Below, one piece after another: positions 4,422 to 31,418 of a stretch of DNA of 38,580 nt. Source of the stretch: Candidatus Binatia bacterium. Lineage in GTDB: Bacteria; Desulfobacterota; Binatia; UBA9968. The stretch spans positions 1 to 38,580 of the forward strand of contig JAICEJ010000003.1 in the NCBI GenBank assembly GCA_025924215.1. The letters run 5' to 3'. The position numbers were made by a program, and so were the translations under genes. Numbering within the stretch: the stretch's first letter is position 1; every line of letters starts with the position of its first letter. Below the pieces are notes generated by a model. That model did no database searches. It saw nothing but the letters and a program-made list of their open reading frames with translations, and was not told the DNA's origin.

Positions 4422-4495
4422 TGTCCGAAAAAAGGGTCAGGTCAGCTATCGAAATCTGAGATGCAGCTCCTCTAATTCGTCGCATTTTCGACACA
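4422..4495. promoter_or_regulatory. Putative enhancer (bEBP-binding) 18-bp palindromes
   Basis: TGTCCGA-AAAA-AGGGTCA (4422), CTATCGA-AATC-TGAGATG (4446) and CGTCGCA-TTTT-CGACACA (4478), upstream of the sigma54 motif at 4581. Confidence 0.45.
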
Positions 4496-4580
4496 CAGGC
4501 AATGCCATGCGTGGCCCACGCGAGAGCCATCGCGCCACTAGCGGACGCACTCCAGCCCAAGTAAAAGGCTCTGGCTATCC

Positions 4581-4596
4581 TGGCATCTTCGTTGCA
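4581..4596 (+). promoter_or_regulatory. sigma54 -24/-12 promoter
   Basis: TGGCATCTTCGTTGCA (GG-N10-GC), 41 nt before ATG 4638. Confidence 0.8.
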
Positions 4597-4637
4597 CAGA
4601 GCTTGCTACGCCACACAGCCTTATACACAGTGGACTC

Positions 4638-5399
4638 ATGCTGAGACCGATAGAGAGCCTCAAGAATTTTTCGATCGGCGCTAATGATGGCGAGATCGGA
4701 AGGGTAGTAGAATTTTTCTTCGATGACGACAAGTGGACGATCAGATATCTGGTTGCCGACACCGGAGGTTGGCTGAGCGGCAGAAAAGTGCTGATCTCGC
4801 CGATCTTCTTCGGCGCGGTGGATTGGGACGGCGAGGTTTTCAACGTCAACCTTACCCGACAACAAATCGAAAATAGCCCAAGCATCGACACCGATAAACC
4901 GGTGTCGCGCCAACAGGAGAGCAGCTTTTATGACTACTACAACTTTCCCTATTATTGGTTGAGTGCGGGGCTAACAACTCCAGCGGCGGTTGATCCTAGC
5001 GCAGCTACACCAGCCCCAAGCGGTCCGGAGGCCGCGGCGTTGGGCCAGCAATCGGATTTCGAGGACATTCATTTGCGTAGCACCAAGGACATACTCGGCT
5101 CTTATATTGAAACCACCGATGGCGACCTTGGCCATCTGGAGGATTTCATCATCGATGATCAAACCTGGGTAATCCGTTATCTGCTGATCGATACGACAAA
5201 TTGGTGGCCAGGTAAGACAGTGCTGATCTCGCCGGAATGGGTCAAGGACATGGTTGAGGCCGATTCGAGAGTCTACGTCGATCTGACCCAGGAACAGATA
5301 AAAACTAGTCCGCAGTACGATGAGACAACCGTTCTCGATCGTGACTACGAGTCGCGTCTCTACCAACATTACGGCCGCTCACGGTATTGGAGCGACTAA
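4638..5399 (+). CDS. Tandem PRC-barrel domain protein
   Basis: Two repeats of (A/T)xDG(E/D)(I/L)GxV/Lx(E/D)FxxDDxxWxIRYLxxDTxxWxxG(R/K)xVLISP...(V)xLTx(Q/E)QI, each followed by a Y-rich tail. Confidence 0.9.
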   Translation: MLRPIESLKNFSIGANDGEIGRVVEFFFDDDKWTIRYLVADTGGWLSGRKVLISPIFFGAVDWDGEVFNVNLTRQQIENSPSIDTDKPVSRQQESSFYDYYNFPYYWLSAGLTTPAAVDPSAATPAPSGPEAAALGQQSDFEDIHLRSTKDILGSYIETTDGDLGHLEDFIIDDQTWVIRYLLIDTTNWWPGKTVLISPEWVKDMVEADSRVYVDLTQEQIKTSPQYDETTVLDRDYESRLYQHYGRSRYWSD

Positions 5400-5472
5400 A
5401 AAATACTCCCCGGCCACCCATCGCAACGCCAAAGCACCGATCAGAGTGGATTCAAAAGCAGGAGAAGCAAGT

Positions 5473-7032
5473 ATGAACACAGCATGGGAGTGGAACGATA
5501 TCAATGAGCAAAAGGCTAAACGGCGTTTCGGCATCAAACGTTATCGCGCCGGCCAGCGCAAGCTCATTCAGGCGGTCCTGGAGAGAAGGAACGCTTTGGG
5601 GGTATTACCTACCGGGGGCGGCAAATCGCTTTGCTATCAATTGCCTGCTCTGTTTCTTCCGCGTGCCGTTTTGGTTGTCTCTCCTCTGATCGCGTTGATG
5701 CAGGATCAGCAGGAGAAACTCGTAGAACGAAGCATTCCTGCCGTTGAGTTGAACTCGACGCTAAGCTCAAACGAAGAACAGGAAAACATCGATACCGTTC
5801 AAAGCGGACAAACAGAGCTGATCTACGTCACTCCGGAACATTTGGAGAATGCAGGATATCTCAAGATTCTAAAAAAGGCCGGTGTGTCACTGGTGGTCGT
5901 CGATGAAGCCCATTGCGTTTCGCAGTGGGGCCATGACTTTCGCCCGGCTTACCTGTCACTGCGTAATGCGATCCGAGAGCTCGGGCATCCTCCGGTGCTG
6001 GCTTTGACAGCGACAGCCACTGACGAAGTCGCGACAGATATATTAAAGCAGCTTGAGTTAACCGACCCAGAGGTGATCAGTATCGGTATCGAACGAAAGA
6101 ATGTCGCTTTCGAGGTCGTTCGTACCGTCAACGAGGACGTCAAAAGAGATCGGCTCAAAGAAATTCTACGGGAACAGTCCGGCGGCGCCGGGATAATTTA
6201 TGTGCCCACCGTGAAACAGGTCGATGCTCTATGCCAATGGTTGATCGAGGAAGGATTTCGCGCTGGCCAGTATCATGGCCGGATGAAGACACCGATGCGC
6301 GAAACCAACCAACAGGCGTTCATGGCCAACGAGATCGATGTGATGGTCGCAACCAAGGCGTTCGGTTTGGGCATTGATAAGCAGGATATTCGTTTTGTCA
6401 TTCACTATGCGGTTCCGGACTCCATCGAAACTTATGTGCAAGAGACGGGACGCGCGGGGCGCGACGGCGAGCCGGCCCGGGCGATACTGTTCTATCGGCT
6501 TGAGGATCGCCGCGTTCAGTCCTACTTTCTCGGCGGCAAATATCCGCGTCGAGATGAGTCCTTGGCGCTGTATCGGACATTGGACCAAATGCCGCAACCA
6601 GAAGATTTGGGGGACCGAACTACCGAGCAATGGCTGGCCGAGGTTACCGATCTGACCGAGAAACGAGTCAAGGTTATTCTCGCGCTCTTGGAAAGCACGG
6701 GAATAATACAGCGCAAACCTCACGTGAGCAAAATCCGTGACTTCAACACCGATCAGGAGTTCGCCGCGTTTCTCGAAGAATACGAGCAGCGTCATAACGG
6801 CGACCGGCAACGTTTAGACGCAATGATGCTTTTTGGCCAGATTACCACCTGCCGAATGCGTTATCTGCTCGACTATTTTGACGAGGAGGTCGATGGCGAT
6901 TGCGCTCGCTGTGACAACTGCCGCGCTGGACAGGAAGCGACGGAAAACAGTTTCAGAGACGCCTCTTTATCCGGCGCAATCAAACAGGCACCGTCATCGT
7001 GCGGAATCGGCGCCGCTGTGGCGAATTCTTAA
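5473..7032 (+). CDS. recQ: RecQ-family ATP-dependent DNA helicase (short form, no HRDC)
   Basis: PTGGGKS, DEAHCVSQWGHDFRPAY, LTATA, QETGRAGRDG and the C-terminal Zn site CRMR...CARCDNC. Start moved to ATG 5473 after AGGAG. Confidence 0.92.
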   Translation: MNTAWEWNDINEQKAKRRFGIKRYRAGQRKLIQAVLERRNALGVLPTGGGKSLCYQLPALFLPRAVLVVSPLIALMQDQQEKLVERSIPAVELNSTLSSNEEQENIDTVQSGQTELIYVTPEHLENAGYLKILKKAGVSLVVVDEAHCVSQWGHDFRPAYLSLRNAIRELGHPPVLALTATATDEVATDILKQLELTDPEVISIGIERKNVAFEVVRTVNEDVKRDRLKEILREQSGGAGIIYVPTVKQVDALCQWLIEEGFRAGQYHGRMKTPMRETNQQAFMANEIDVMVATKAFGLGIDKQDIRFVIHYAVPDSIETYVQETGRAGRDGEPARAILFYRLEDRRVQSYFLGGKYPRRDESLALYRTLDQMPQPEDLGDRTTEQWLAEVTDLTEKRVKVILALLESTGIIQRKPHVSKIRDFNTDQEFAAFLEEYEQRHNGDRQRLDAMMLFGQITTCRMRYLLDYFDEEVDGDCARCDNCRAGQEATENSFRDASLSGAIKQAPSSCGIGAAVANS

Positions 7033-7108
7033 ACTCTTTTTTCTGCTGGGCAGCTTACCCTGATTTCGCTGTGGTTCAGGTTTAGAACCTGACCAGATTT
7101 CCAATCAG

Positions 7109-8668
7109 TCAACGTGGAGATAACGTTTGTCCTAGACTCAGCAACCAGTTTTTCAAATTGCTCACCCCACGACTAAAAAACGAATCCTCCGTGGCGGAAA
7201 TTCCTTCATAGCGGTCTTCCTGATAAAAGGGACCTTCAGGATCGAACGGCAAGCCCTCCGGGAGCACAGAGGTCACCCAGAGATAATCTTCAGAGACAAT
7301 ATCCAGCGGGTGATGCCGGAGCCGGTAAGATCCGCTGTCTGCCAAGCTGTTCAGATATTTTACCAAACCGCGGCTCCGGCTTAGATTCTCGAGTACCTGA
7401 GCTTCCCGCGCTCCTACATGTTCGGCCAAAAGGTCAACGCGAACAGCGCGAATCGCGCGGCCAACTTCACTCTCCCCCGCAGGCGCTTCCCATGCAACGT
7501 TCAATTCGGTATCGAGTCCCAAGCTGCGATTGTTCATATTGGCCGAGCCGACACTCAGGAAACGATCATCGACCAGGAAAAGCTTCGAGTGAATATACGT
7601 GGCGCTTTCTTTACCGTCGCCTCGGACCGAAGCCGGATAATAAATGCCGAAGGAGTGCCCTGTCTCCGCTGCGACACTCTGCAGTTCTCGAAGCAGTTTT
7701 TCCTGTACAACACCGATCGAAAGCTGCTCAACAAAAGCTTCGGCATCTTTGGCGATGACTAGGACGATTTCCAAATGAGAGCGCCGCGCATTCATCATAC
7801 GATCGACCAAAGCTTTGTACAGCGCGTTGGAGCTGAAATACTGATTCTCGACATAGATCAACTCCTCTGCGGCGTCGATCGCATCGAGAAATAAGCTGCG
7901 GATTTCCTGAATCGGCTTTTGCTCCCCCGCAGTTCCGGCTTGGGTTCGGCTGATCGCAATGAACTCTGCCGGAATCGCCACGGTAGGTCGAAACGGGAGC
8001 TGGTAATTCGACGATGATTTCGGCAACTGAAGAGTCCCCGTGGTGACGCAGTTCCAGCGGGCGACAAACAGCTCGGCCAGCTTCTGAGCCGCCGGGCCGA
8101 CGTGGAAAGATTGGATGTCGTGAAACGGGCCATAGCCGTTCTGGTCGGAATTCACACGAACCGGACTATCGACCGGATGGTCGCGATCGTCCCACCGGCC
8201 TGAACAAATATCCAGGCCACCGACAAAGGCTAGCTTGCCGTCGATCACGACGAATTTCTGATGGTGCGCGGCGCCGAAACAGTCGCAGCAGTCAAAGGAG
8301 AACGTGAACCTCTCATTCGTAGTCCAATTGAAGTACCAATCCTGAAACCACTCGCGATCGAGGCTGTAGAGCACTGTAAAGTCCCAAGCGAGGATGTAAA
8401 TGTGCAGACGTTGGTTTTGCTCGCAGAGATTATTCAAGAACGTGAGGAATTGAACGGACTCTTCAGCGGCGTCGGCATCCCTGCCGCGAAGCAGCGCCAC
8501 GTCGCTGTCGAACTGCCAACCAGAGATGAGAATATAATCCTCGGCAATTCGGGCGGCCTGATAAAACGCGCGGTAATAATCCCTGCCATCGATGAGCAGG
8601 CCCGATTTGGTGACTTCGCTGATGGTCCAGCAGTTCTTCTCCGGCTGTAGTATCTTTCTGACCGACAT
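7109..8668 (-). CDS. Phospholipase D superfamily protein (two HKD motifs)
   Basis: HHQKFVVID...GGLD and YIHSKLFLVD...GSANMNNRS; YVENQYF. Start is 8668 or 8692. Confidence 0.92.
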   Translation of the reverse strand: MSVRKILQPEKNCWTISEVTKSGLLIDGRDYYRAFYQAARIAEDYILISGWQFDSDVALLRGRDADAAEESVQFLTFLNNLCEQNQRLHIYILAWDFTVLYSLDREWFQDWYFNWTTNERFTFSFDCCDCFGAAHHQKFVVIDGKLAFVGGLDICSGRWDDRDHPVDSPVRVNSDQNGYGPFHDIQSFHVGPAAQKLAELFVARWNCVTTGTLQLPKSSSNYQLPFRPTVAIPAEFIAISRTQAGTAGEQKPIQEIRSLFLDAIDAAEELIYVENQYFSSNALYKALVDRMMNARRSHLEIVLVIAKDAEAFVEQLSIGVVQEKLLRELQSVAAETGHSFGIYYPASVRGDGKESATYIHSKLFLVDDRFLSVGSANMNNRSLGLDTELNVAWEAPAGESEVGRAIRAVRVDLLAEHVGAREAQVLENLSRSRGLVKYLNSLADSGSYRLRHHPLDIVSEDYLWVTSVLPEGLPFDPEGPFYQEDRYEGISATEDSFFSRGVSNLKNWLLSLGQTLSPR

Positions 8669-8680
8669 GGACGTTCCATC

Positions 8681-8709
8681 CCTGCGCCGCATCCACCGCG
8701 CGGCGCAGG
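8681..8709. other. GC-rich hairpin next to the PLD start
   Basis: CCTGCGCCGC-N9-GCGGCGCAGG, a perfect 10-bp stem. Confidence 0.5.
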
Positions 8710-8875
8710 ACGATTCCTAAAGTAAGTTTCAATAAAAAAAGCCGCTATTCAGCGCCGCTGTGTGTGAGTGCTGCTCGCATGACACGCAAAAAGAAAATGG
8801 CCGAGTGTTTTGTCGGCCTAAGGATTCCTAAACAGCGCGAGATTGCAGCAGAGGCAGAAAAGAAAATCGATGTTC

Positions 8876-9163
8876 TCAATTATTCCGCAACGAACTCGAT
8901 TCGCGAAACTCAGCAAGAGCCTGGTTACCGTTATCGTAGAGGGCGTCATAAAAAACGCCGCCGGTCTCATCTTGGTCGGCCTGGTTAAACGCTTGGCTGT
9001 TTTTCAACAATTGACGACGCCGTTGCAAATAAGTGTTCGTGGGCCAGCGCCAAGGGGATGTCGTCAAATTCTCGCCATCATATCGAGCCCCATTAACTTT
9101 ACTTTGACCAAATACTAATTGCCAAAAACTCTGTTCTTCCCACCTGACGCGTTGCGACTTCAT
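8876..9163 (-). CDS. Hypothetical protein, 95 aa
   Basis: Near-ideal RBS AGGAGGTG before ATG 9163 and its own sigma54 motif upstream; family not recognised. Confidence 0.65.
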   Translation of the reverse strand: MKSQRVRWEEQSFWQLVFGQSKVNGARYDGENLTTSPWRWPTNTYLQRRRQLLKNSQAFNQADQDETGGVFYDALYDNGNQALAEFRESSSLRNN

Positions 9164-9224: not shown

Positions 9225-9240
9225 GGCAAAACATATTCCA
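9225..9240 (-). promoter_or_regulatory. sigma54 -24/-12 promoter
   Basis: TGGAATATGTTTTGCC on the minus strand, 61 nt before ATG 9163. Confidence 0.65.
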
Positions 9241-9300
9241 GCCAAGACGCTTTTTCAATATACCAAATACATTGGCGAAACCGACAGCATCGATGAGTGC

Positions 9301-9360
9301 TGTACTACTGTTGGGACGGTCTCCGTGAAAAGACGCACTGGGTGTGCCAAATCCGACACA
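9301..9360. promoter_or_regulatory. Putative enhancer palindrome pair
   Basis: TGTACTA-CTGT-TGGGACG (9301) and TGTGCCA-AATC-CGACACA (9343), 42 bp apart. Confidence 0.5.
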
Positions 9361-10257: not shown

Positions 10258-10409
10258 GTTAGCCTCCGCCTTTCACTTCAAACATTTAAATGTCTTCTAT
10301 CAAACTCGCGACTTGAATTACCAGCGTATACCATTACATGCTTCTAGCAATTTTCATAGGCGTGCCGTCCGGGAGCAACCGCCGGCGTTGTATAGAGCGA
10401 CCTACGAAG

Positions 10410-10425
10410 CGCAAAAGCCATTCCA
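10410..10425 (-). promoter_or_regulatory. sigma54 -24/-12 promoter
   Basis: TGGAATGGCTTTTGCG on the minus strand, 152 nt before ATG 10257. Confidence 0.6.
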
Positions 10426-10459: not shown

Positions 10460-10475
10460 TGGCATAGCGGTTGCA
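10460..10475 (+). promoter_or_regulatory. sigma54 -24/-12 promoter
   Basis: TGGCATAGCGGTTGCA, 26 nt before ATG 10502. Confidence 0.8.
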
Positions 10476-10739: not shown

Positions 10740-10788
10740 TGTGCCGATTTCAAGACATGGCACTATATTTTGCGGCACTTCCGGGACG
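10740..10788. promoter_or_regulatory. Putative enhancer palindrome pair
   Basis: TGTGCCG-ATTT-CAAGACA (10740) and TGCGGCA-CTTC-CGGGACG (10771), 31 bp apart. Confidence 0.5.
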
Positions 10789-10830: not shown

Positions 10831-10846
10831 CGGTATGTCGATTGCT
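10831..10846 (+). promoter_or_regulatory. sigma54 -24/-12 promoter
   Basis: CGGTATGTCGATTGCT, 39 nt before the csbD ATG. Confidence 0.65.
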
Positions 10847-10885: not shown

Positions 10886-11083
10886 ATGAACTGGGATCAA
10901 ATGAAGGGCAACTGGAAGCAATTCAAAGGAAAGGCTAAAGAACAGTGGGGAAAACTTACCGATGATGAATTAGATCAGGTCGAGGGCAAGCGCGACCAGC
11001 TGGTCGGTAAGATTCAGAAGCAATACGGTTTGAGCAAGGAAGAAGCCGAGCGCCAAGTCGGTGATTGGGAACGCAGGCTATAA
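10886..11083 (+). CDS. csbD: CsbD/YjbJ family general stress protein
   Basis: MNWDQMKGNWKQFKGKAKEQWGKLTDDEL...GKRDQLVGKIQKQYG; RBS AAGGAGG. Confidence 0.97.
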   Translation: MNWDQMKGNWKQFKGKAKEQWGKLTDDELDQVEGKRDQLVGKIQKQYGLSKEEAERQVGDWERRL

Positions 11084-14758: not shown

Positions 14759-15511
14759 TTAGCGTTTCGCAGCTTTTTCCTGTCTTTGGCTGAGCGCCTT
14801 ATCCGTTGCGTCCGCTTGCCACAAATTCGAAGTCACGTCGACTTTGGTGGCCTTGCCGCTGTTCTTGTCAAAATCGATCTGCACCTCGTAGGTGTCGTTG
14901 CCTTTGACGATCTCATACTCTACGTAATCGGGCTTATCAGCATTGACGGATGTGATCTTGTAACCCATCTTCTCGAGCTGGCTTCGATAGCTCTGCTTGG
15001 TTTCGCCGGTCTTCAGTGTCTTCTCCAGCTTCTCCTCCTCGCTGTCGTAAGCCTTACGCCGGTCCCGGTCGCTGTAACGTTCAGGGTTAGCTATCGCACC
15101 CTTTGGCGCGGAAACCTTTTTTCCTCGCAAAGCGGCCTTGGTGGAATCTGTTCGCCATAGATTCGGAGCGATGTCTACTTTTGTGGCTTTGCCGTTCTTA
15201 TCAAAATCTATCTGCGCTTCAAACGAATTATTGCCTTTCACAATCTCGTATTCGGCGTAATCAGGTTTGTCATAATTCACTGAGGTAATTTGATAGCCCA
15301 TCTTCTCCAGCTCGCGCCTGTAGAAGTTTTTGTCCTGTCCAGCCTTCAGCGCCTGCTCCAATTTCTCCTCTTCATCATCATAATTTTTTCTCTGATCACG
15401 GTCACTGTAGCGACTTCGATCGGTGTCGCCCTTTTTGGCGGTGCCATCCGCCGCTATCAGAGGGGCAGGAGCGAGCAATACAGCTGTGAATATCAGATAA
15501 TGAACTTTCAT
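14759..15511 (-). CDS. Secreted protein with two tandem PepSY-like repeats
   Basis: Signal peptide MKVHYLIFTAVLLAPAPLIA, then two copies of RYSDRD..YD.EEEKLE..LK.G..K..YR..LEKMGY.ITSVN.DKPDY.EYEIVKGN..E.QIDFDKN.GKATKVD...NLW. RBS GAGGAGG. Confidence 0.85.
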   Translation of the reverse strand: MKVHYLIFTAVLLAPAPLIAADGTAKKGDTDRSRYSDRDQRKNYDDEEEKLEQALKAGQDKNFYRRELEKMGYQITSVNYDKPDYAEYEIVKGNNSFEAQIDFDKNGKATKVDIAPNLWRTDSTKAALRGKKVSAPKGAIANPERYSDRDRRKAYDSEEEKLEKTLKTGETKQSYRSQLEKMGYKITSVNADKPDYVEYEIVKGNDTYEVQIDFDKNSGKATKVDVTSNLWQADATDKALSQRQEKAAKR

Positions 15512-15577: not shown

Positions 15578-15593
15578 AGCAAGCGATATGCCA
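15578..15593 (-). promoter_or_regulatory. sigma54 -24/-12 promoter
   Basis: TGGCATATCGCTTGCT, 66 nt before ATG 15511. Confidence 0.8.
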
Positions 15594-15831
15594 GCACCTC
15601 CGAGCAGCCGTATTCCAAAGGCGGCGCACCTAATTGAGCATCTCAACGAGTTGAGTCCGGCTTGACGGAAACCGTAGCCAACGCTTTGTAGCGATTGCGG
15701 CACATGGAACGGGACACTTTCTCAGATCAGCGACATACACGGTGTCACCCGAAAAGACGCGGATTCACCGACGGATGAATGAGAGACCCCCGGCCCGCTT
15801 TTAGTGAACTTCCTGGCTGGTATTCTGGTAT

Positions 15832-16611
15832 TTATGGTGTCTGGGTTTTAGCGAGTGGTCTTTCTCGCTCGGCATAATAGGCGCGACCGCGTTCATAGCC
15901 GCGACGAAAGGTTTCGTCGTCACAAATATCCGGCTGCAACTCGCGCAGCTTCGGTACCGCAGCTTCATAGGCTTTACCGCGGCAATCAGGATGGAGAGCT
16001 GTTTCAAAGCCGGTGCGATAGCGGCTTTCGTTTCTGTGAAAGTCGCCGTCCGGCGCGTCATACTGCGCTTCTTCGGCGTCACGTATTCCGATCCACCACT
16101 TGTCACGGGCAGCATCAACGCTTTCAGCGCCGTTGCGCTCGATCACAGCTCTTCCCTTTTCAATCACATCGTCGTCCTGGGACCTGGCAATCAACACAGT
16201 TCGGCCCTGCCTCAAAGCATCTTCATAAAAGAACAGTTCATCTTTGGGCAATCCCGTTGAAAGCTGATTCTCAAGCGCGCCGCCGGTCACCGCGCCAGCC
16301 ACTGCCCCACCGATTCCAAACGCCCCGGCACCTAAACCAATCGCCAGTATGGTGCCGACACCCGGCAAGACAATGCTTGCGACGACACTTCCGGCGGCTA
16401 GTCCAACCGCGCCGCCAACAACGCCACCGATGGCGCTTCCCATACCGGGCTGCTCACCCTCATCTGTCGGCACCGCATCGAGGTCTTTTGCGGAGCTTCC
16501 CGGCGCCAGCAGTACGATATCTTCATTGCGGAAGCCCGCCTCAGTTTGCAGCTCCGAAAATGCCCGTTCGGCTTCTTTCCTCGAATTGAAAATTCCGGCG
16601 ATCGTTCCCAT
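15832..16611 (-). CDS. General stress protein (YflT-like split domain with glycine-zipper TM hairpin)
   Basis: IAGIFNSRKEAERAFSEL..GF..EDI; Gly/Ala-rich GGVVGGAVG...LPGVG; GLPKDE..FYEDALRQGRTVL. Confidence 0.8.
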   Translation of the reverse strand: MGTIAGIFNSRKEAERAFSELQTEAGFRNEDIVLLAPGSSAKDLDAVPTDEGEQPGMGSAIGGVVGGAVGLAAGSVVASIVLPGVGTILAIGLGAGAFGIGGAVAGAVTGGALENQLSTGLPKDELFFYEDALRQGRTVLIARSQDDDVIEKGRAVIERNGAESVDAARDKWWIGIRDAEEAQYDAPDGDFHRNESRYRTGFETALHPDCRGKAYEAAVPKLRELQPDICDDETFRRGYERGRAYYAERERPLAKTQTP

Positions 16612-16659: not shown

Positions 16660-16675
16660 CGCAATGCAAATGCCA
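16660..16675 (-). promoter_or_regulatory. sigma54 -24/-12 promoter
   Basis: TGGCATTTGCATTGCG, 48 nt before ATG 16611. Confidence 0.8.
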
Positions 16676-16776: not shown

Positions 16777-16827
16777 CTTCCCACTCGTGGGACGACGAAA
16801 TCCGAGTAGTATGCCAACTCTAGGACG
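16777..16827. promoter_or_regulatory. Putative enhancer palindrome pair
   Basis: CTTCCCA-CTCG-TGGGACG (16777) and TATGCCA-ACTC-TAGGACG (16810), 33 bp apart. Confidence 0.5.
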
Positions 16828-17143
16828 CTGAAGCACATTTAGCCTGATCGCTAAGTTCTGTATTCTAATGCTTCGCCATAGTCAGTATGACGCACTAGCT
16901 TCATGGCACGCATGCCCATCCTTGGCCCTCGCTTTGCAGACCAAGCTGACGCTTTTAGAGGAAGCTTCACGTTTGAAAACCATTAACGCGCACTCGAAGC
17001 AGGGCCTAACGTGGCGCGAGCAATCCAGGCTTGCGGTGAGAGCGGCGACACGAGGCAAAAAGATACGAAGGATGACTCGTGACCGATGTCGCAGTTATCA
17101 TCTCGCGTCATCCTTCATTAATGTAAACTAAGGGAGAACTTCC

Positions 17144-17575
17144 ATGAACAACCGATTGGCCAAGGAACTCGGCGCGACTCTGCGGCGCAAGCGATCCTCT
17201 CTGCTGCTGCAAGAAATTGTCGGCAGCCAGAACGAAGTCGGGCCATCGTTAGAAGACCGTGAGAGCGAGCTCGAAGAGAGCGCGCAAAAGGATCGCATGA
17301 CTCGCTTGGAGAGTCGCCTGACCGAGCGCGGCCAGACCCTTCTACGCCAGATCGACGACGCTCTTGAACGAATCGATGTGGGAACTTTCGGCGAGTGTGA
17401 ACGATGCGGCAATGATATCGGTCATGGCCGGCTTAAGGCGATGCCAACAGCGGCGCTCTGTATCGATTGTGCAACCGCCCGGGAAAAGAGACAGCGTATG
17501 CTAGGAGCAAATGGCGACATCGAGCGACTGCCATTCAAGGACGATGAGCTTGAAGGTCGCCTAGGCTCCGAGTAA
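17144..17575 (+). CDS. DksA/TraR family C4 zinc-finger protein
   Basis: Coiled coil followed by IDDALERIDVGTFGECERCGNDIGHGRLKAMPTAALCIDCA. Confidence 0.92.
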   Translation: MNNRLAKELGATLRRKRSSLLLQEIVGSQNEVGPSLEDRESELEESAQKDRMTRLESRLTERGQTLLRQIDDALERIDVGTFGECERCGNDIGHGRLKAMPTAALCIDCATAREKRQRMLGANGDIERLPFKDDELEGRLGSE

Positions 17576-17627: not shown

Positions 17628-19238
17628 CTAGTTGCGGCGAATGTCCGCAGCGGCTTCCGCTGTCACATTGGCTGGTAAGGTCAAGTGGAAGGTGGTGCCC
17701 TTGCCTACTGTGCTGGCATAAGAAACTACGCCATCGTGCGCAAGGATAATTTGCTGCACAATGAACAACCCCAGACCGGTACCGTGCGGCTTTGTCGAGC
17801 TGAACAGATCAAAGACCTTCAGATCATCGGGAATACCTATACCGGTGTCACTGATATCGATGCAGATCGAGCCGCCGCTCAAGTATCCCTTTACTGACAA
17901 AGTGCCGCCGTACGGCATCGCCTCTACGGCGTTTTTAAAAAGATTGAGTAACGCCTGTTTGAGTTTTGCCCCGTCGCCGCGGATTGGCGGCAGATCCGGC
18001 GAGCACTCCCACATAATCTGAACGTCCCCTTTGCCGTCCATATCCAATCCCGAGATCGTTTCTTGAACGACGCTGGCGAGCTTCACCGGCTGAAGACTAA
18101 GTTTTTGAGGTCGCGCAATCGTTTTGAACTCGTTCAGCAGAGAAGTAAGCCGGTCGATCTCGCTCTTCAAGTCCTTCAACGTCGCTAACATGTGCGGCGG
18201 AGCTTTGATGCCCTCTCGACTGATAAATCGCTCCAGCAGTTGGACCGTCGTGGAAATGCCGTTCAGCGGATTGCCAATCTCATGAGCCAGCATGGATGCC
18301 GCGGTTCCAATCGCCGCCAGATGTTCCTTTTCCCTTAACTTCTCTCGCAGATTTCGTTCCTGCGAGTCATCGCGCAACAAAATCAAAAATCCCTGCAAAC
18401 CGTCGGCATCGTCACGTAGCGCAAAGACGATGACCCTAGCATAAAACTGTGAGCCGTCTTTGCGCACCAACAGTTGGTAGTCGCGAAATGTTCCTTGATC
18501 ACTCGCCTCATCAAGCGCCTTTTTTATCAACGCCTGTCTGCCTTCCTGATCGGCGAAGAAAACCGACAACCGCTGGTCCGCCATATCATCACTCTCGCGG
18601 CCCAGGATGCGGGTTGCGGTGCGGTTCCAGTCAACGATGCGGCCATCGGCATCGGATATCAGAACCGCGTAATTTGTGATGTTGCGGAGCAAATTCCCGA
18701 GGATTTGCTCGACCTGCTTGCGTTGCGCCTCCTCGTGCTGAAGCTCCTCGGTTTTCGACATCAACTCGGATGTTTGTTCGATCACGCGCTGCGCCAAACG
18801 CTGATTTAATTCGAGAATAATCTTCTCCGCCTCGTTGCGTTCGGTAACTTCTCGAATCACTTTTACGACGTAGGCGCCCCTATCAGTTTGCAGAAGCGTG
18901 CATGTTGCTTCCGCGGCAAAAAGCGATCCGTCACGGCGGCGATACTGCCATTCACCGCGCCAGCAGCCGTTTTGCTCGATGTCGGGAATCGAGGTTTGAT
19001 AGATACGATCGAACCAATTCTTGTCGAGGTACAGCCGTTCGGTGGTCTGTTGCAAGACCTCCTGAGCCGAATAGCCAAACAACAAGGTTGCGCCCTCATT
19101 CCAGTAAACGATACAGCGCGACTTGAACTCGATAACGATGATCGCCTCAGGAATCCCTTTGTACAGTGACACCAGGACGTTCTCATCGAGAGGCGGCGGA
19201 CAGGTTTGGCTATGAATTGCTGGTTCGTTGGCAGACAT
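17628..19238 (-). CDS. Cytoplasmic PAS-PAS sensor histidine kinase (NtrB/AtoS-like)
   Basis: Two PAS domains; H-box LAHEIGNPL, N-box NLFKNAVEA, G boxes DTGIGI and STKPHGTGLGL; no TM segment. Confidence 0.93.
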   Translation of the reverse strand: MSANEPAIHSQTCPPPLDENVLVSLYKGIPEAIIVIEFKSRCIVYWNEGATLLFGYSAQEVLQQTTERLYLDKNWFDRIYQTSIPDIEQNGCWRGEWQYRRRDGSLFAAEATCTLLQTDRGAYVVKVIREVTERNEAEKIILELNQRLAQRVIEQTSELMSKTEELQHEEAQRKQVEQILGNLLRNITNYAVLISDADGRIVDWNRTATRILGRESDDMADQRLSVFFADQEGRQALIKKALDEASDQGTFRDYQLLVRKDGSQFYARVIVFALRDDADGLQGFLILLRDDSQERNLREKLREKEHLAAIGTAASMLAHEIGNPLNGISTTVQLLERFISREGIKAPPHMLATLKDLKSEIDRLTSLLNEFKTIARPQKLSLQPVKLASVVQETISGLDMDGKGDVQIMWECSPDLPPIRGDGAKLKQALLNLFKNAVEAMPYGGTLSVKGYLSGGSICIDISDTGIGIPDDLKVFDLFSSTKPHGTGLGLFIVQQIILAHDGVVSYASTVGKGTTFHLTLPANVTAEAAADIRRN

Positions 19239-19455
19239 CGTATCCTTATCTTTGCAGCCACACTTAAGTGACTGCGCGAATTCTATTGAGGTCCTACGAC
19301 CTGGGTCATCATTTAACTATATCTCTGATAAATCAAGATCCTGTCAATCTAGCTAGCTTGGCACAGCTCGATGGCCGCCTCACCGAAGACGCACCATAAA
19401 AGGTGAATTCCGACCTGGGACAAACCCTTTTGTAAAAACGAATCGCTACTTGTGC

Positions 19456-19471
19456 TGGCATGCTCGTTGCG
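19456..19471 (+). promoter_or_regulatory. sigma54 -24/-12 promoter
   Basis: TGGCATGCTCGTTGCG, 25 nt before ATG 19497. Confidence 0.8.
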
Positions 19472-19496: not shown

Positions 19497-19868
19497 ATGA
19501 AGGCAATCGGAGCGAGGATTTGGGCAATCCCGGAGGGCTATATTCCCGGCTGGAGCAACGGTCCCGAACCTGAATTTACCAGCCATGAGACCGTCTGCTT
19601 GCTCAACACCGCGGATGAGAATGCTCACGTCCTCATTACTGTTTTCTTCTCTGATCGCGAACCTGCCGGCCCCTACGCGATTACAGTGGCGGCGCGCCGG
19701 ACAAAGCACGTGCGGTTTAACGATTTGAGGGATCCGGAAAAAATTCCACTTGCTACCGATTTTGCCAGCGTCATCGAATCGGACGTGCCGATCGTGGTGC
19801 AGCACACACGCCTCGACTCACGCCAAGCAGAAAACGCTTTACTCAGCACGATGGCTTACCGGGAATAG
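19497..19868 (+). CDS. Anabaena sensory rhodopsin transducer (ASRT) family protein
   Basis: IGARIWAIPEGYIP..S.GPEP..TSHETVCLLN...RTKHVRFNDL.DP...SDVPIVVQHTRLDSRQAENALLSTMAY. Confidence 0.9.
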   Translation: MKAIGARIWAIPEGYIPGWSNGPEPEFTSHETVCLLNTADENAHVLITVFFSDREPAGPYAITVAARRTKHVRFNDLRDPEKIPLATDFASVIESDVPIVVQHTRLDSRQAENALLSTMAYRE

Positions 19869-27158: not shown

Positions 27159-27529
27159 GGCACAGACTGGTTATGGCTCCACCCCTTGGAAGACCGCGCC
27201 CAGATGAGGGGGGGAACAAGCATAACCGTTGCGCTGAGTTTCTTCGGCGGCCGTTTGGGCGGAGGATCGCCGGCTGGAGGCGGGTCTCGCGGATCTGATA
27301 TCTCCGGTTCACGTGAAGGTGGCTCCTCGACCGGCGGCTTCTTTCGCCGCTTTTGCGGTTCCCGCCTGGGCGCGGGCGGTCTCTTGGCTGGCCCGGCATG
27401 GAGAACGGATCCGATCCGGCATGTTGCCTGCCGTCTCAGATCATGGCGGTTGTCCATCGGCTGCGCCGCCAAATCAGCAAGCCGCCCGAACCGCGATATA
27501 AGAACGTAACATGCAGCTCGTCGAAGCAA
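27155..27529 (-). CDS. Possible proline-rich small protein (start uncertain)
   Basis: PPVEEPPSREPEISDPRDPPPAGDPPPKRPP. Its TGA overlaps the AI-2E ATG (ATGA), and it fills the BON to AI-2E gap. Confidence 0.4.
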   Translation of the reverse strand: MLRRAACYVLISRFGRLADLAAQPMDNRHDLRRQATCRIGSVLHAGPAKRPPAPRREPQKRRKKPPVEEPPSREPEISDPRDPPPAGDPPPKRPPKKLSATVMLVPPLIWARSSKGWSHNQSVP

Positions 27530-27530
27530 T

Positions 27531-27842
27531 CTAAGATTTGCCTAACTGAAGGTTATTGACCACCTTCTTAACACCGTCAACCCGACCCGCTAATTGCTCG
27601 GCCCGCGCTTTCTGTTCGGCGCTTTGTACCGTGCCGTTTAAGTAAACCACGCCGTTTGTGGTATCGACATCGATACGAGTAAAATTCGACGCCTTGTCGG
27701 ACGTCAATGTGGCCTGTACCGCAGTCGAGATGCGCGCGTCGTCAACATTTTGCCCAGCCGTTCGCCCGGTCATCGCTTGACACCCGGAGAGTGCGACAGC
27801 TAGGAGCGCTACTGCGGCAAAATGTCTACTCGGTTTCTTCAT
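27531..27842 (-). CDS. BON-domain (OsmY-like) lipoprotein
   Basis: Own RBS AGGAGG and ATG 27842; lipobox LSGC; VDDARISTAV...IDVDTTNGVVYLNGTV...VDGVKKVVNNL. Confidence 0.9.
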   Translation of the reverse strand: MKKPSRHFAAVALLAVALSGCQAMTGRTAGQNVDDARISTAVQATLTSDKASNFTRIDVDTTNGVVYLNGTVQSAEQKARAEQLAGRVDGVKKVVNNLQLGKS

Positions 27843-28244
27843 TGTGATTCCTCCTGTTTTTTGTTCATTCTTCTGGTGATTAGCAAAACACTCGACCAGC
27901 CGGCGCAACTCGTCCAAGTGAAACGGCTTGCCTAGCACTCGGTCACATCCGGCAGCGATCCAGAGATTTTTCTCCCGAATTGAGCCCATCGCCGCCATGG
28001 CTATCACCGGGATATCGGTGAAGCGCGAACCGCTCTTGAACTCGCTAAGCAACGAAGAAGCTCCACTGCCTGAAATCGTTACGTCGAGCAATATCAAATG
28101 GGGCCTTTGCCGCTCGAGCTGTAGCCAAAAATCCTCCTGGCTGTTTGCTGCCGACGCGCGCCAACCGCATAGCTCCAAGTACTTCACGATAAGTTCGAGA
28201 AGATCCTGATTTTCCTCGACGACGAGGATGCGAAAAGATTTCAC
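27843..28244 (-). CDS. Degenerate receiver (REC) domain that reads in-frame into the BON gene
   Basis: GTG 28244 after GAGGTG; ILVVEEN, LILLD, PVIAMAA (no Thr/Ser) and GKPF; no stop codon before the BON start. Confidence 0.7.
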
Positions 28245-28322
28245 GATACTTCACCTCGGCAGTCCGAAGCTCCGGATGCTGCGCAAACATATTGCTATTC
28301 GCTACTTTAATGTATGGCCGCC

Positions 28323-28487
28323 TCAAACCCCTGAGCGGCGACCCATTACTAAACTGACGACAAACAAAACTAGGAATACTACAAACAGGATCCAGGCAAT
28401 CTGTGTCGCCGCTCCGGCGATTCCGGTGAGTCCCAGAACCCCTGCGATTAATCCGATAATTAGAAAAGTGATTGCCCAACTGAGCAT
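28323..28487 (-). CDS. DUF1328 (UPF0391/YtjA) small membrane protein, 54 aa (not in ORF track)
   Basis: [54 protein letters not shown]; RBS GGAGGAGG. Confidence 0.95.
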
Positions 28488-28643
28488 GGCTTTATCCTCC
28501 TCCGCGTATTAGGCGGGTTTGAAAAACACAATATTAAACCGTTCTCGTGTTGAAGCTGTTCGTGCTTTCAGAAATTTCCCTTCTACATTCTCGTAAGCCC
28601 AAGAATCCCGGTGACGATTAAGTAAATAGCCACGACATAATTC

Positions 28644-28659
28644 AGCAATCTGGGCACCA
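28644..28659 (-). promoter_or_regulatory. sigma54 -24/-12 promoter
   Basis: TGGTGCCCAGATTGCT, 156 nt before ATG 28487. Confidence 0.55.
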
Positions 28660-28736
28660 GCAAAATAAGGATTCCGGCAATCAAGGCGATCAGCGGCTGC
28701 AAGGAAATGTAAAACTGCATCGATGATTCTCCTTCG

Positions 28737-29348
28737 TCACTCGGACCGTTTGAGAATTCGCGTTAATTCGAATCGATTCTCGCCTAGGAAGATGCCTTGA
28801 AACCGAACAAAATCGCCGGAGCGCAATTGGCTAAACTCTTCCTCAGTGATTTCAGTAGAATTCTGCGGCAAATACACGCTGGTCGAAGCGGCCGAGGAAG
28901 TACGCAGCTCGATGATCCGGCGATCGCTGAGCACCCGCTCAACGGTCCCTTCGACGATAGCGTCGCCGTTTCCACGTTCACGCAAGCTGATCGAGTCCGC
29001 CACCACGCGCCCGTCGGCTGTTCCATGCATCCGAACCTCGATCGTATCGCCGCGACCGAGTTCGGTGGGAGAAATTTCCTTTCGCTCGACGACGACCCGC
29101 GTGTGATTTGTATACGTGACAATCTGGCTGTGCCCTTCTTGGGTGCGTAGGTAAAGCTCGCGACGGCTATGGTCCAGCTCCTCAATCGTGCCGTTAAACT
29201 CGACATTCTCGCGGCGGGAGTGTGCGTCCAGTGCTGGTCGCCCCACCAAGGCAAGCTCTTCACAGCCCCAATGGATCATGGGCATTGCCGAAACCGCAGC
29301 TAGAGTGAAAATCGCGCGAGGCGTCGTTAGCGCGGGTTGTGGTTTCAC
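28737..29348 (-). CDS. Probable lipoprotein with two OB-fold-like (DUF5666-like) repeats
   Basis: GTG 29348 after AAAGGA; HWGC lipobox-like; repeats GT(I/V)E.....R...LRT...LxxGDx(I/V). Confidence 0.65.
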   Translation of the reverse strand: MKPQPALTTPRAIFTLAAVSAMPMIHWGCEELALVGRPALDAHSRRENVEFNGTIEELDHSRRELYLRTQEGHSQIVTYTNHTRVVVERKEISPTELGRGDTIEVRMHGTADGRVVADSISLRERGNGDAIVEGTVERVLSDRRIIELRTSSAASTSVYLPQNSTEITEEEFSQLRSGDFVRFQGIFLGENRFELTRILKRSE

Positions 29349-29362
29349 GTGCGCGTCCTTTG

Positions 29363-30058
29363 CTAACGCAATTTTTCTAACTGCGCGATACGATCTTCCG
29401 TGGCTGGGTGGGTAGATAGAAAGCCGCCGCCACCTCCACCTCCCGAACTTCGAGAAACCCAATTTAGCGCATTGATCAAAACATCTTTGGAGTATCCGGC
29501 GCGCCGCAAGATTTCGACACCATGTCTATCCGCAGCATACTCTTCGTTCCGGCTATAGCCACGGGCGATGAGACTGCCGGCGATCGGCGTCACCGCGCTG
29601 CTGCCCGGTATGAGCTGCTCAAGAAGTATCACTCCCAAATTCAAGCCGACGCCAAGACCCTGAGCTTTGGCGACATGGCCTAAGTCATCATGAGCGATTT
29701 CGTGGGCCATAATGCCACGCAACTGTTCGTCGTTGGCTTTTTCTAATAGACCGGTGGTCACGTAGAACTCCCCACCGCCGGCGTTCGCTGCATTGATGTC
29801 GGCTTCATCGATAATGCCGATCCTCACATCTTTTGGCGATTTCGGACGATCCATATTCTTTAGCAGCGGTGTCATGATGCGGTAAAACCGCTCCGCTTGC
29901 CGAGAATCTATTTGGCGTGTATTCGCCGGCTGACGCCGATCATCGTTCCTACTGTCGCCCCGCGGCGCTGCGCCATCCGCGACAACGCAACCTGAGATCA
30001 AGGTCGCGACAATCGCTATTGGGACGAGATAGAATTGTTTTATCGATTTCACGATCAA
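29363..30058 (-). CDS. M48 family zinc metallopeptidase lipoprotein
   Basis: LISGC lipobox; NAANAGGG..YVTTGLL, HEIAH, YSRNEEYAAD and FLSTHP..EDRI. Confidence 0.92.
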   Translation of the reverse strand: MIVKSIKQFYLVPIAIVATLISGCVVADGAAPRGDSRNDDRRQPANTRQIDSRQAERFYRIMTPLLKNMDRPKSPKDVRIGIIDEADINAANAGGGEFYVTTGLLEKANDEQLRGIMAHEIAHDDLGHVAKAQGLGVGLNLGVILLEQLIPGSSAVTPIAGSLIARGYSRNEEYAADRHGVEILRRAGYSKDVLINALNWVSRSSGGGGGGGFLSTHPATEDRIAQLEKLR

Positions 30059-30066
30059 GAGCTCTG

Positions 30067-30291
30067 TTAGTAAATGATCGATCCTCTTTCTATTTGCTTT
30101 TTGCGATCTTCATACTCTTCGCGCGATATTCTTCTTTTTTGGAAATCTTCATCCAAGCGATCCATCTGCCGTTTCGCCTGTATCTCATAACCCGCGCCCG
30201 TGGCCACCGCTCCAGTCGCTGCTCCACCAAGAAACGCACAACTCGATTGTGTTAGCCCCAATAACGCCAGTAATAGTAAATAATTTCGCAT
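30067..30291 (-). CDS. Small lipoprotein with a SHOCT-like C-terminus, 74 aa
   Basis: MRNYLLLLALLGLTQSSC, Gly/Ala stretch, ISREEYEDRKKQI; RBS AAGGAAGG. Confidence 0.75.
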   Translation of the reverse strand: MRNYLLLLALLGLTQSSCAFLGGAATGAVATGAGYEIQAKRQMDRLDEDFQKRRISREEYEDRKKQIERGSIIY

Positions 30292-30334
30292 AAACCTTCC
30301 TTTCGTTTGCACCCGATGTCGAAAAGGTACAAAG

Positions 30335-30350
30335 AGCAATGGATGTGCCA
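30335..30350 (-). promoter_or_regulatory. sigma54 -24/-12 promoter
   Basis: TGGCACATCCATTGCT (full TGGCAC-N5-TTGC consensus), 43 nt before ATG 30291. Confidence 0.85.
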
Positions 30351-30422
30351 CAACTGGGAATTCTATTCGGAAGTTCAATTAAGCCTAGTGCGAAGACGAA
30401 AACTAGACATCCAACCGTGCTC

Positions 30423-30472
30423 CGTCTTGAAAGTGGAACAAACTGAAAGCCAATTAGCGCAGTTGTGGGACG
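30423..30472. promoter_or_regulatory. Putative enhancer palindrome pair
   Basis: CGTCTTG-AAAG-TGGAACA (30423) and TAGCGCA-GTTG-TGGGACG (30455), 32 bp apart. Confidence 0.5.
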
Positions 30473-30622
30473 GATTTAATATGCCGCTGCTGGATAGGCG
30501 CAAATCTGAATCACCGATGCGATTTCCGAGGGCCCTACTTATCCTTGAAACGTGCCAAGAGAGAGTTCCGGGAACGCGTTCTAACTGTTAACAGCGAGTA
30601 TACCGAGCCTTGTGTACAACGC

Positions 30623-30658
30623 AAAAAGGCTTCTCACCTCCCGGTGAGAAGCCTTTTT
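30623..30658. terminator. Bidirectional Rho-independent terminator
   Basis: AAAAAGGCTTCTCACC-TCCC-GGTGAGAAGCCTTTTT, a perfect inverted repeat downstream of the OMP gene. Confidence 0.9.
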
Positions 30659-30694
30659 ACATTCGTGGTATCTCTTTAGATGGCGGAAGAAAGG

Positions 30695-31252
30695 TTACGG
30701 TCTTCTCGTGCCGGCTCCGGAACCGCCCCACGTAAAACCAACGCCGATATTGAATATATGGTTGCCATTGTCCGATTCATTATTGATGCGCTCGAACTTA
30801 TCCCAAAACCATTCGTACCGGTAACCAAGATTTACGAAAGTCTGTTCATGAACGAATAGTTTGACACCGACCTGGGGGCCCAGAGTTCCGGTGATGTCGT
30901 CATCGTTCCACGCTGCACCAATGAAAGCGCCGAGATAGGGAACGATGATGTCGGTCACTCGAAAATGATAATTAATGAAAGGCGCGGTCGTGGCGATCCA
31001 TTGATCACTGGCATCGTCTACGAAGAGGTAATTGAGCGCCTGTCGAAAGCCTAATTGCCATCCTGGACTGAGATAATACCCATAGCTCAAATCCAAGTTT
31101 AAATTGCCGAAGTCAGTATCTTCGGCATGAAAAAATCCGCCCGATACTTGAAGCTCACTAGCGCCCTGTCGGGGTGCGGCAGCGACAGGCGCAACTCCAG
31201 CGAGCGAACTGATCAAAGCCCAACTCACTAGAGACAGGAAAACTTTTTTCAT
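30695..31252 (-). CDS. Small outer-membrane beta-barrel protein
   Basis: Signal peptide; alternating amphipathic strands (YGYYL, VPYLGAFIG, LGYRYEW, FNIGVGFTW); RBS GGAGGT. Confidence 0.85.
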   Translation of the reverse strand: MKKVFLSLVSWALISSLAGVAPVAAAPRQGASELQVSGGFFHAEDTDFGNLNLDLSYGYYLSPGWQLGFRQALNYLFVDDASDQWIATTAPFINYHFRVTDIIVPYLGAFIGAAWNDDDITGTLGPQVGVKLFVHEQTFVNLGYRYEWFWDKFERINNESDNGNHIFNIGVGFTWGGSGAGTRRP

Positions 31253-31289
31253 AGAATACCTCCAACTGATAAAATTTGAAGCTTTTGTG

Positions 31290-31305
31290 AGCAATGAAGA
31301 TGCCA
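31290..31305 (-). promoter_or_regulatory. sigma54 -24/-12 promoter
   Basis: TGGCATCTTCATTGCT, 37 nt before ATG 31252; 14/16 identical to the 4581 promoter. Confidence 0.8.
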
Positions 31306-31367
31306 ACTCCGCGAAAAGACTAGCGCCTTGTAAATACAGAACTAATACAATGTAAATGCCTTAACGG

Positions 31368-31418
31368 TGTCCGGCAAACGCTACTGTGTATTGCTTCGCC
31401 TGTATTGTGAACGCTACA
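31368..31418. promoter_or_regulatory. Putative enhancer palindrome pair
   Basis: TGTCCGG-CAAA-CGCTACT (31368) and TGTATTG-TGAA-CGCTACA (31401), 33 bp apart. Confidence 0.45.

Follow-up and report, generated by a model that had tools for sequence, protein, structure and literature searches.

Conserved palindrome pairs before the sigma54 promoters of a Candidatus Binatia contig as predicted enhancer sites of stress-protection genes

Which protein, if any, reads the palindromes that lie in front of the sigma54 promoters in a stretch of DNA from an as yet uncultured Candidatus Binatia bacterium of soil? The stretch (called the window here) comprises 38,580 nucleotides and is the entire contig JAICEJ010000003.1 (C3) of assembly GCA_025924215.1, which has 5.3 Mb, 745 contigs and 54% G+C and of which the window makes up 0.7%; its closest public loci all belong to metagenome-assembled genomes. 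An earlier note on this DNA had picked 19 degenerate 18-bp palindromes, part of them arranged in six pairs, and had proposed that one sigma54 activator with a Fis-type helix-turn-helix (HTH) recognizes them all on tandem, helically phased sites. Our analysis indicates that this observation largely holds: the palindromes are real and conserved, and they are predicted to be activator-binding sites before the sigma54 promoters of stress-protection genes. The proposal of a single activator is likewise supported by the sequence, and a candidate protein of the REC-AAA+-HTH_8 type could be identified.

A palindromic expectation-maximisation search (width 18, at most two sites per sequence) over the 10 merged upstream intervals of the window, run without guidance, converged on TGTCCCAAATTTGGGACA (TGTCCCA-N4-TGGGACA) and recovered 14 of the 19 noted sites together with a new one at 15687. 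The motif score of 221.9 was reached by none of 30 controls (15 dinucleotide shuffles, 183.9 +/- 4.5; 15 control sets of non-coding DNA, 186.4 +/- 5.7), so that the comparison with control intergenic DNA, which had been suggested as a check, yields a significant motif. All 19 noted sequences are present where they had been placed, and 15 of them score 8.1-16.2 bits with the position weight matrix (PWM) of the motif, whereas those at 4446 (1.1 bits), 10361 (-3.6), 15699 (-5.6) and 19405 (-7.3) fail against the cut-off of at least 8 bits used for window sites. Five of the six pairs (9301/9343, 10740/10771, 16777/16810, 30423/30455 and 31368/31401) stand with both members at 8 bits or more and conserved in 4-8 genomes; of the sixth, 4446/4478, the 4478 member (15.1 bits, 6/6 genomes) is sound, but 4446 is poorly conserved and was rejected as its partner. 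Among the sites described as weaker and single, those at 4422, 15718, 19348 and 33267 (9.4-11.9 bits) are retained, but those at 10361, 15699 and 19405 fall below 0 bits. Site 15699 had been read in the wrong register: the conserved site occupies 15687-15704 and pairs with 15718 at 31 bp. The spacings of 42, 31, 33, 32 and 33 bp given for the five pairs are correct, with orthologous pairs keeping 31-33 bp, and the site centres, placed by the note at about 75-170 bp from the predicted transcription starts, lie by arithmetic on coordinates at 77-169 bp. The near-identity of 30423 with the reverse complement of 10740 amounts to agreement at 14/18 positions. Two other ways of counting the motif were abandoned. 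No k-mer enrichment of the window over the whole-genome background was significant after correction (among 1313 tests GTCCCA reached a p of about 5e-4, and AT-rich words ranked first), and exact palindromes were unusable across genomes, GTCnCA-N4-TGnGAC having 0 matches in the genome of the window (G000).

The PWM was trained on the window regions, and its scores there are therefore partly circular; independent support comes from footprints in related genomes and from tests outside contig C3. The footprints draw on seven other genomes of the genus that are syntenic with the window (DNA identity 70-93%), 4 to 8 genomes of the genus being aligned per promoter where the region could be aligned. 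Outside C3, we counted sites of at least 9 bits (and also of at least 11 bits) lying 20-200 bp upstream of a promoter-like match. The window-trained PWM gave 12, 24 and 8 matches in the three 50-bp bins covering 0-150 bp upstream of the -24 element and 0-4 in each of the other 13 bins, and the peak at 50-100 bp before the -24 element is thus found outside the window too. At 9 bits, a site lies upstream of 36 of the 143 promoter-like matches, compared with 4/135 on the downstream side and with 7.3 +/- 3.5 (maximum 18/143) for 200 column-permuted palindromic PWMs; at 11 bits the corresponding figures are 20/143, 1/135 and 2.0 +/- 1.7. A de novo run on the 143 outside regions found the core TCnCA-N4-TGnGA in 63 of them, with a total information of 11.2 bits. 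Overall, the 18-bp dyad has a consensus of about TKTCYCA-N4-TGRGAMA, is located 50-150 bp upstream of -24/-12 promoters, and stands before a quarter to a third of all sigma54-like promoters that the genome contains.

Pairs of sites are enriched as well. Twelve pairs at 30-33 bp were found outside C3 where about 2 were expected, and genome-wide there are 19 pairs (both members at least 8 bits, spacing 30-34 or 41-43 bp) compared with 3.8 expected; of the 19, six belong to the window and 14 lie no more than 250 bp upstream of a promoter-like match. The periodicity that had been suspected is borne out in that the pairs favour 30-33 bp, about three helical turns. The earlier note had named the lack of a significant motif, and an abundance of equally good pairs in unrelated DNA, as outcomes that would speak against it; the motif is significant and such pairs are rare, so that neither was found. 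The arrangement is that of an upstream activating sequence, with dyad sites some 70-200 bp ahead of the start and rare downstream (4/135), tandem sites phased by whole helical turns (31-33 bp, and 42 bp once) and a -24/-12 promoter of the GG-N10-GC kind downstream of the sites. The genome has its two highest-scoring site pairs at C297:2805-2853 (15.5 and 16.1 bits, 31 bp) and C448:2242-2291 (17.2 and 14.3 bits, 32 bp); by the patterns used, no promoter-like match lies within 250 bp of either.

The promoters themselves are well supported. The window holds 11 matches to TGGCAC-N5-TTGC with at most one mismatch, compared with 2.7 +/- 1.8 expected and with 0/100 shuffles reaching 11, and genome-wide a stricter sigma54 pattern gave 154 matches, seven of them within the window, versus 72 for the reversed pattern. 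Promoter-like elements occupy 13 intergenic positions of the window, of which 12 are kept in all or nearly all of the 4-8 alignable genomes of the genus; the thirteenth, 19456(+), is present in the four closest genomes only.

A domain search of the genome revealed no sigma54 activator among the proteins encoded in the window. The sigma54-interaction domain has 19 matches in the genome at E <=1e-10, 18 of them covering the entire domain, and of these 19 activator genes C243:2317-3669 alone has a strong site pair upstream. Its sites, TGTGTTGTTTTCAGGACA (12.2 bits) and TGTGTCTCAAATGAGACACA (14.5 and 16.0 bits in two registers), are 30-32 bp apart and, by arithmetic on coordinates, 49-80 bp before the sigma54 promoter GGGCACGCATCTTGCG. 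The gene encodes a 450-aa REC-AAA+-HTH_8 protein (Pfam Response_reg 1.7e-29, Sigma54_activat 3.5e-67, HTH_8 4.4e-13) whose translation shows GAFTGA, the Walker A motif GESGVGKE and the acceptor Asp context LTDLKMPG, and which is by these features a sigma54-dependent response regulator of the NtrC family. Its best solved relatives also belong to the NtrC family (e.g., 4l4u at 3e-106), and by NCBIfam cut-offs it stays below all named equivalogs (AtoC 447.3 against 714, NtrC 408.6 against 558.6, ZraR 386.4 against 760, GlrR 339.8 against 763). GlgE-type and alpha-amylase-family genes follow the regulator on its contig.

In a tree of the best match per genome from 20 genomes plus the G000 paralogue on contig C637, the candidate falls into a clade A of 12 rows, next to a clade B of 9 rows. 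All 12 clade-A genes, distributed over at least 5 genera, have upstream sites, 11 of them as pairs 30-32 bp apart, and 10 of the 12 have a sigma54-like promoter by pattern, while none of the 8 clade-B top hits has a comparable site pair upstream. Moreover, in three genomes of other genera (G024, G019 and G010) the clade-A gene lies among homologues of window genes, namely those for the beta-barrel protein, REC-BON, M48, TamB, Omp85, CsbD, Metallophos and the proteins of ORFs 14759 and 15832 (ORF, open reading frame), and these neighbourhoods, too, are dense in sigma54 promoters with sites. The C243 protein (orthologues L078-L083) is, in rounded figures, 100% identical in five genomes and 96% identical in two more, whereas DNA identity to this part of the window is 72-93% across those genomes and 81-93% in the five with the identical protein. 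A nearly identical protein despite diverged DNA points to unusually strong purifying selection.

We consider it probable, at roughly 0.7, that the palindromes are enhancer sites for one sigma54 activator, for which the C243 protein is the candidate. For NtrC-family activators it is established that dimers occupy paired sites, that phosphorylation drives the assembly of an AAA+ hexamer, and that DNA looping brings the GAFTGA loops into contact with sigma54. By analogy, dimers of one NtrC/AtoC-type response regulator, presumably the C243 protein, would bind both sites on the same face of the helix; a histidine kinase would phosphorylate the receiver domain, so that the active AAA+ ring assembles; the GAFTGA loops of the ring would reach the promoter-bound sigma54 holoenzyme through DNA looping, and ATP hydrolysis would open the promoter. 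The activator would switch on its own expression through a site pair of this kind, which would constitute positive feedback, and would probably also drive the gene of the single-domain response regulator at 3884-4279 in the window; this gene has a conserved sigma54-like promoter of its own and a share in the 4478 site, so that its product might serve as a feedback element. A partner kinase was sought via the kinases encoded beside the activator gene (G019, G010) or in its vicinity (G024), and this route was given up: they match five kinases of G000 (on contigs C480, C151, C591 and C637, and at 17628-19238 of the window) about equally and in the kinase core only.

Several findings weigh against a single activator of the C243 type reading all sites. 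In the motif outside the window, position 2 is about equally G (0.41) or T (0.43), so that more than one protein may read the sites. The paralogue C637:1429-2775 is 61% identical to the candidate, has a similar HTH recognition region and carries a related palindrome at C637:1398-1415; indeed, clade-B genes of five genomes, C637 of G000 included (L090, L092, L094 and L095), show TTTC(G/T)CA-N4-TG(C/A)GAAA 27-47 bp before the start codon, which from the sequence suggests autoregulation of the paralogue with shifted specificity (TT instead of GT), and such a sister protein could share some sites with the candidate. Two or more related activators of the clade-A and clade-B types might accordingly have overlapping regulons, an arrangement that we regard as unlikely: the half-site combinations GG, GT and TT occur 13, 18 and 10 times where independence predicts 11.8, 20.4 and 8.8, so that the sites are not split into two classes, the window sites are nearly all of the GT/AC type, and the clade-B sites adjoin the start codon instead of lying upstream of a -24/-12 promoter. 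Support for the two clades is moderate (84/81 for A, 90/83 for B). It is also a point against the candidate that a site pair at its own promoter shows regulation of the regulator and not by it, and would equally fit a regulon member targeted by some other activator from among the remaining 17 or so. In addition, the sites are retained in G003, whose best match to the candidate is a sister-clade protein; the clade-A gene was not found in its assembly, which is 95% complete, and may be unassembled or truly absent. That the true reader is a different activator seems less likely still than sharing, since comparable sites or context are seen at none of the other activator genes of G000, the upstream architecture is found in 12/12 clade-A genes of at least 5 genera, the clade-A gene lies inside a homologous gene island in other genera, and the C243 protein is extremely conserved. 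Part of the evidence from other genera comes from an unpublished genome (G018), which the argument does not need.

Further points against enhancer function concern the sites. Four of the 19 noted sites and one of the six pairs fail, no perfect palindrome occurs among the sites of G000, and many promoters have just one site of at least 9 bits. Two window promoters, each kept in 4/4 genomes, stand apart: the sigma54-like promoter of the YtxH-like/DUF3618 genes (10410..10425, minus strand) has no conserved or convincing enhancer site in the four genomes aligned, and the sigma54 promoter of a small zinc-ribbon-like ORF (10460..10475, plus strand) has, in the same four genomes, merely a weak one at 10296. 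The sites might in principle bind a factor other than a sigma54 activator, such as a repressor or a DNA-bending protein. We hold this to be very improbable, as the position (50-150 bp upstream only), the dyad symmetry, the three-turn pairs and the exclusive association with -24/-12 promoters are traits of activator enhancers, and TGT/ACA half-sites 12 bp apart form a motif class described for activators in the text of PMC4641369. The failing sites and the degenerate IUPAC pattern of the earlier note would also suit chance matches to a loose, hand-picked pattern, but this explanation is already refuted by the 30 control sets, none of which reaches the motif score, by the conservation of the sites while their flanks diverge, and by the position-specific enrichment that a window-only PWM predicts elsewhere in the genome.

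Between the divergent promoters 4290(-) and 4581(+) lies the site CGTCGCATTTTCGACACA (4478..4495), whose counterpart in G003 is TGTCGCAGACACGACACG, with a weak, partly conserved candidate, TGTCCGAAAAAAGGGTCA (4422..4439, 10.9 bits), 56 bp away. The plus-strand sigma54 promoter TGGCATCTTCGTTGCA (4581..4596) belongs to a PRC-barrel gene and is kept in 6/6 genomes; the sigma54-like promoter TGGAATCATTTTTGCG of the single-domain response regulator gene (4275..4290, minus strand), found with 0-2 changes in 6/6 genomes, almost adjoins the start codon, which makes its exact transcript start uncertain. The sigma54 promoter TGGAATATGTTTTGCC (9225..9240, minus strand), in front of a 95-aa ORF (8876-9163), is preceded by a proximal site at 9301..9318 (13.6 bits) and a distal one at 9343..9360 (16.2 bits), and promoter and sites are kept in 7/7 genomes. 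The two sites are 42 bp apart in 4 genomes and 32 bp in G003, where the proximal site reads TGTCTCAGTTTTGAGACG; G007 and G002 have three sites, 32 and 55 bp apart, of which spacings 55 bp is no clean multiple of the helical turn. What looks like a promoter at 9334-9349(-) is site 9343 itself, with its half TGTGCCA, and this match was discarded as a promoter because the palindrome is conserved and the -12 part is not.

The CsbD-like gene (about 10886-11080) has the plus-strand sigma54 promoter CGGTATGTCGATTGCT (10831..10846), intact in 4/5 genomes, with a strong site at 10740..10757 (15.5 bits, 5/5 genomes) and a weaker one 31 bp away at 10771..10788 (8.1 bits), whose core GGC..TTCCG..ACR is kept in 5/5 genomes at a spacing of 31-33 bp. 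Upstream of the sigma54 promoter of ORF 14759-15511 (15578..15593, minus strand, 4/4 genomes), the site absent from the earlier note, TGTAGCGATTGCGGCACA (15687..15704, 15.3 bits), is proximal and its partner at 15718..15735 (11.5 bits) distal, both being found in 4/4 genomes with 31 bp between them in all four. The divergent promoters 16675(-) and 16923(+) have in common the site CTTCCCACTCGTGGGACG (16777..16794, 10.6 bits), kept in close relatives, and its partner at 33 bp (16810..16827, 11.0 bits). This pair recurs at the five nearest homologous loci and is clear as a pair in four, with the orthologous sites 32-33 bp apart at 4 loci; the 16777 site was found at 4/5 of the loci scanned and reaches 8.7 bits at the fifth. 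The minus-strand sigma54 promoter of gene 15832-16611 (16660..16675) is likewise present at 5/5 nearest homologous loci, and the sigma54-like promoter TGGCCCTCGCTTTGCA before the DksA/TraR-type gene 17144-17575 (16923..16938, plus strand) in 4/4 close genomes.

Homologues of the 259-aa protein encoded at 15832-16611 have sigma54-like promoters within 400 bp upstream at 15/29 loci scanned, including L033, L035, L037, L038, L042, L044-L047 and L049, in Blastocatellia, Rokuibacteriota, Methylomirabilota and other Binatia; at such loci outside the genus the palindrome is mostly absent. The four closest genomes show high conservation in the leader of about 200 nt (16939-17143) that separates promoter 16923(+) from the DksA/TraR-type gene. 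An ORF in this region (16868-17131) is probably not a gene, no Rfam family was detected anywhere in the window, the leader included, and the 198-nt leader folds no better than shuffled sequences (z -1.13).

In the second half of the window, a possible single site at 19348..19365 (11.9 bits) lies upstream of the plus-strand sigma54 promoter of an ASRT-family gene (19456..19471), and its footprint says little, as this promoter is present in 4 closest of 8 genomes only. The gene itself (19497-19868) belongs to the Anabaena sensory rhodopsin transducer family (PF07100, 9e-57), and in the remaining four genomes the region upstream of it is a different one. The minus-strand sigma54 promoter TGGCACATCCATTGCT (30335..30350) of a small gene at 30067-30291 is kept in 8/8 genomes. 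Upstream of it, the sole blocks conserved in 8/8 genomes are CGTCCCA..TG in the distal site (30455..30472, 8.3 bits, with CGTCCCA invariant) and TGTTC...AGAC in the proximal site (30423..30440, 10.9 bits), and by PWM calls the sites are 32 bp apart in 7/8 genomes. The outer-membrane beta-barrel gene has a minus-strand sigma54 promoter at 31290..31305, intact in 6/7 genomes, with a proximal site at 31368..31385 (8.5 bits; GTAnC-N7-CCGGACA in 6/7 genomes) and a distal one 33 bp away at 31401..31418 (11.4 bits; spacing 32-33 bp in 6 genomes), both retained in 6/7 genomes. Site 31401 is a perfect TGTAGC-N6-GCTACA in G007 and G002 and reads CGTCTCATAAACGGGACG at the same place in G003, from which it follows that variant half-sites replace one another. 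The sigma54-like promoter CGGCATATTTTTTGCC of the BrkB/YihY-Rrf2 gene (33190..33205, minus strand) is invariant in 6/6 genomes, and the single site upstream of it (33267..33284, 9.4 bits) keeps its GGGACA half in 5/6 genomes and forms a better palindrome of 13-15 bits in G002 and G007. A further promoter-like match, 28644-28659(-), was dismissed because it lies inside an unannotated ORF for a small hydrophobic membrane protein (28520-28730, minus strand) starting MQFYISLQPLIALIAG.

What would such an activator control? The stress-type proteins of the window comprise PRC-barrel, YtxH-like/DUF3618, CsbD-like and REC-BON proteins, a DksA/TraR-type factor and an outer-membrane beta-barrel; its envelope proteins are Omp85 and TamB, and its signalling genes encode two PAS histidine kinases and one single-domain response regulator. 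Of 19 ORFs that follow site-bearing promoters elsewhere in the genome, 3 matched no Pfam family; the annotation of the set revealed two CsbD proteins, a long catalase of 711 aa, BON, DksA-BON and Holin-X (PF07332) proteins, two hemerythrins, a CBS pair, a universal stress protein, DUF4142, cytochrome c', two peptidoglycan-binding proteins, an SRPBCC/polyketide-cyclase protein and a CBM48 isoamylase-type (GlgX-like) enzyme. This content, to which the window adds one CsbD, the YtxH-like and the PRC-barrel proteins, is typical of SigB, RpoS and EcfG regulons, and judging from annotation the genes behind these promoters resemble a set for general stress, desiccation or dormancy. The genome encodes rpoN (445 bits, cut-off 277) and no RpoS equivalog above the cut-off (best match 294.8 against 378.7 bits); it has four sigma70-family genes, group-2-like ones included, so that a sigma-based stress response is not shown to be absent. 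We therefore put forward only tentatively, at somewhat less than even odds, that in this Candidatus Binatia lineage a general stress or dormancy response might be run by sigma54 and one autoregulated NtrC-type response regulator, acting through TKTCYCA-N4-TGRGAMA enhancers at some 40-50 promoters, and not by a dedicated sigma70-family factor. Behind a site-bearing sigma54 promoter at C590:2919 lies a 73-aa ORF (2640-2861, minus strand), located upstream of, and on the same strand as, a sigma70-family gene (794-1612, minus strand), and this may represent a cascade from sigma54 to a sigma70-family factor.

The sites resemble the enhancers of known NtrC-family activators, such as those of NtrC at glnAp2, of GlrR/QseF at glmY (TGTC-N10-GACA) and of NifA (TGT-N10-ACA), in being dyads of about 17-18 bp, present at least twice some 70-170 bp before a -24/-12 promoter, phased by whole helical turns, with a candidate reader of the REC-AAA+-Fis-type-HTH kind and an activator gene that is, as often in this family, apparently autoregulated. 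Unlike in these examples, the core TCnCA-N4-TGnGA is specific to the window system, and the predicted regulon is far larger and concerns neither nitrogen, acetoacetate, zinc nor GlmY. According to the text of a study on Desulfovibrio vulgaris Hildenborough, three groups of activator motifs have TGT and ACA half-sites 9, 11 or 12 bp apart, and the activator regulons there mostly comprise 1-4 operons, the largest 12 (Kazakov et al. 2015, PMC4641369). The window sites, mostly YGT-N12-ACR, are like the 12-bp class, with an inner TCnCA core of their own, a comparison that covers the text of PMC4641369. Membership in the TGT-N12-ACA class is clear in the window (PWM columns 1-3 and 16-18) and partial outside it, where column 2 is G or T. 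As far as its text goes, that study (PMC4641369) followed the same logic of a conserved promoter, a conserved motif and a co-localised regulator; in contrast to its maximum of 12 operons, the present motif stands before 36/143 promoters outside C3 and about 10 in the window. The host also belongs to another class than D. vulgaris, namely Candidatus Binatia.

Known general stress regulons are under sigma70-family factors: SigB in Bacillus, RpoS in Gammaproteobacteria and EcfG in Alphaproteobacteria. The predicted regulon shares with them CsbD, YtxH, BON/OsmY-like proteins, the long catalase, the universal stress protein, trehalose and glucan enzymes and DksA-type factors, whereas its control would differ, depending on sigma54 and an ATP-dependent activator and on no dedicated sigma factor with partner switching. 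In the literature searched, we found no description of a sigma54-dependent regulon of the CsbD/BON/YtxH type, nor of sigma54 in Binatia, and a term search within PMC12316311 yielded no mention of general stress, CsbD, catalase, Acidobacteriota, Binatota or trehalose. As to its kind, the element is a textbook bacterial enhancer of the TGT-N12-ACA class; unusual is the large predicted stress regulon.

A better knowledge of this system is of interest, since a well-supported regulon, a motif and a candidate regulator have been obtained from sequence alone for a phylum-level lineage without a cultured member, and since all three are open to testing with purified protein and short oligonucleotides. 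If the proposal is true, sigma54 with an ATP-dependent activator would constitute a fourth architecture of the general stress response beside RpoS, SigB and EcfG, one that would provide a tight off-state and two-component input, and the regulon would be several times the largest activator regulon given for Desulfovibrio in the text of PMC4641369 (12 operons). The density of sigma54 promoters would then be a marker of stress islands in soil metagenomes, and in view of the sigma54-like promoters at homologous loci in Blastocatellia, Rokuibacteriota and Methylomirabilota, stress responses built on sigma54 might occur widely among soil phyla.

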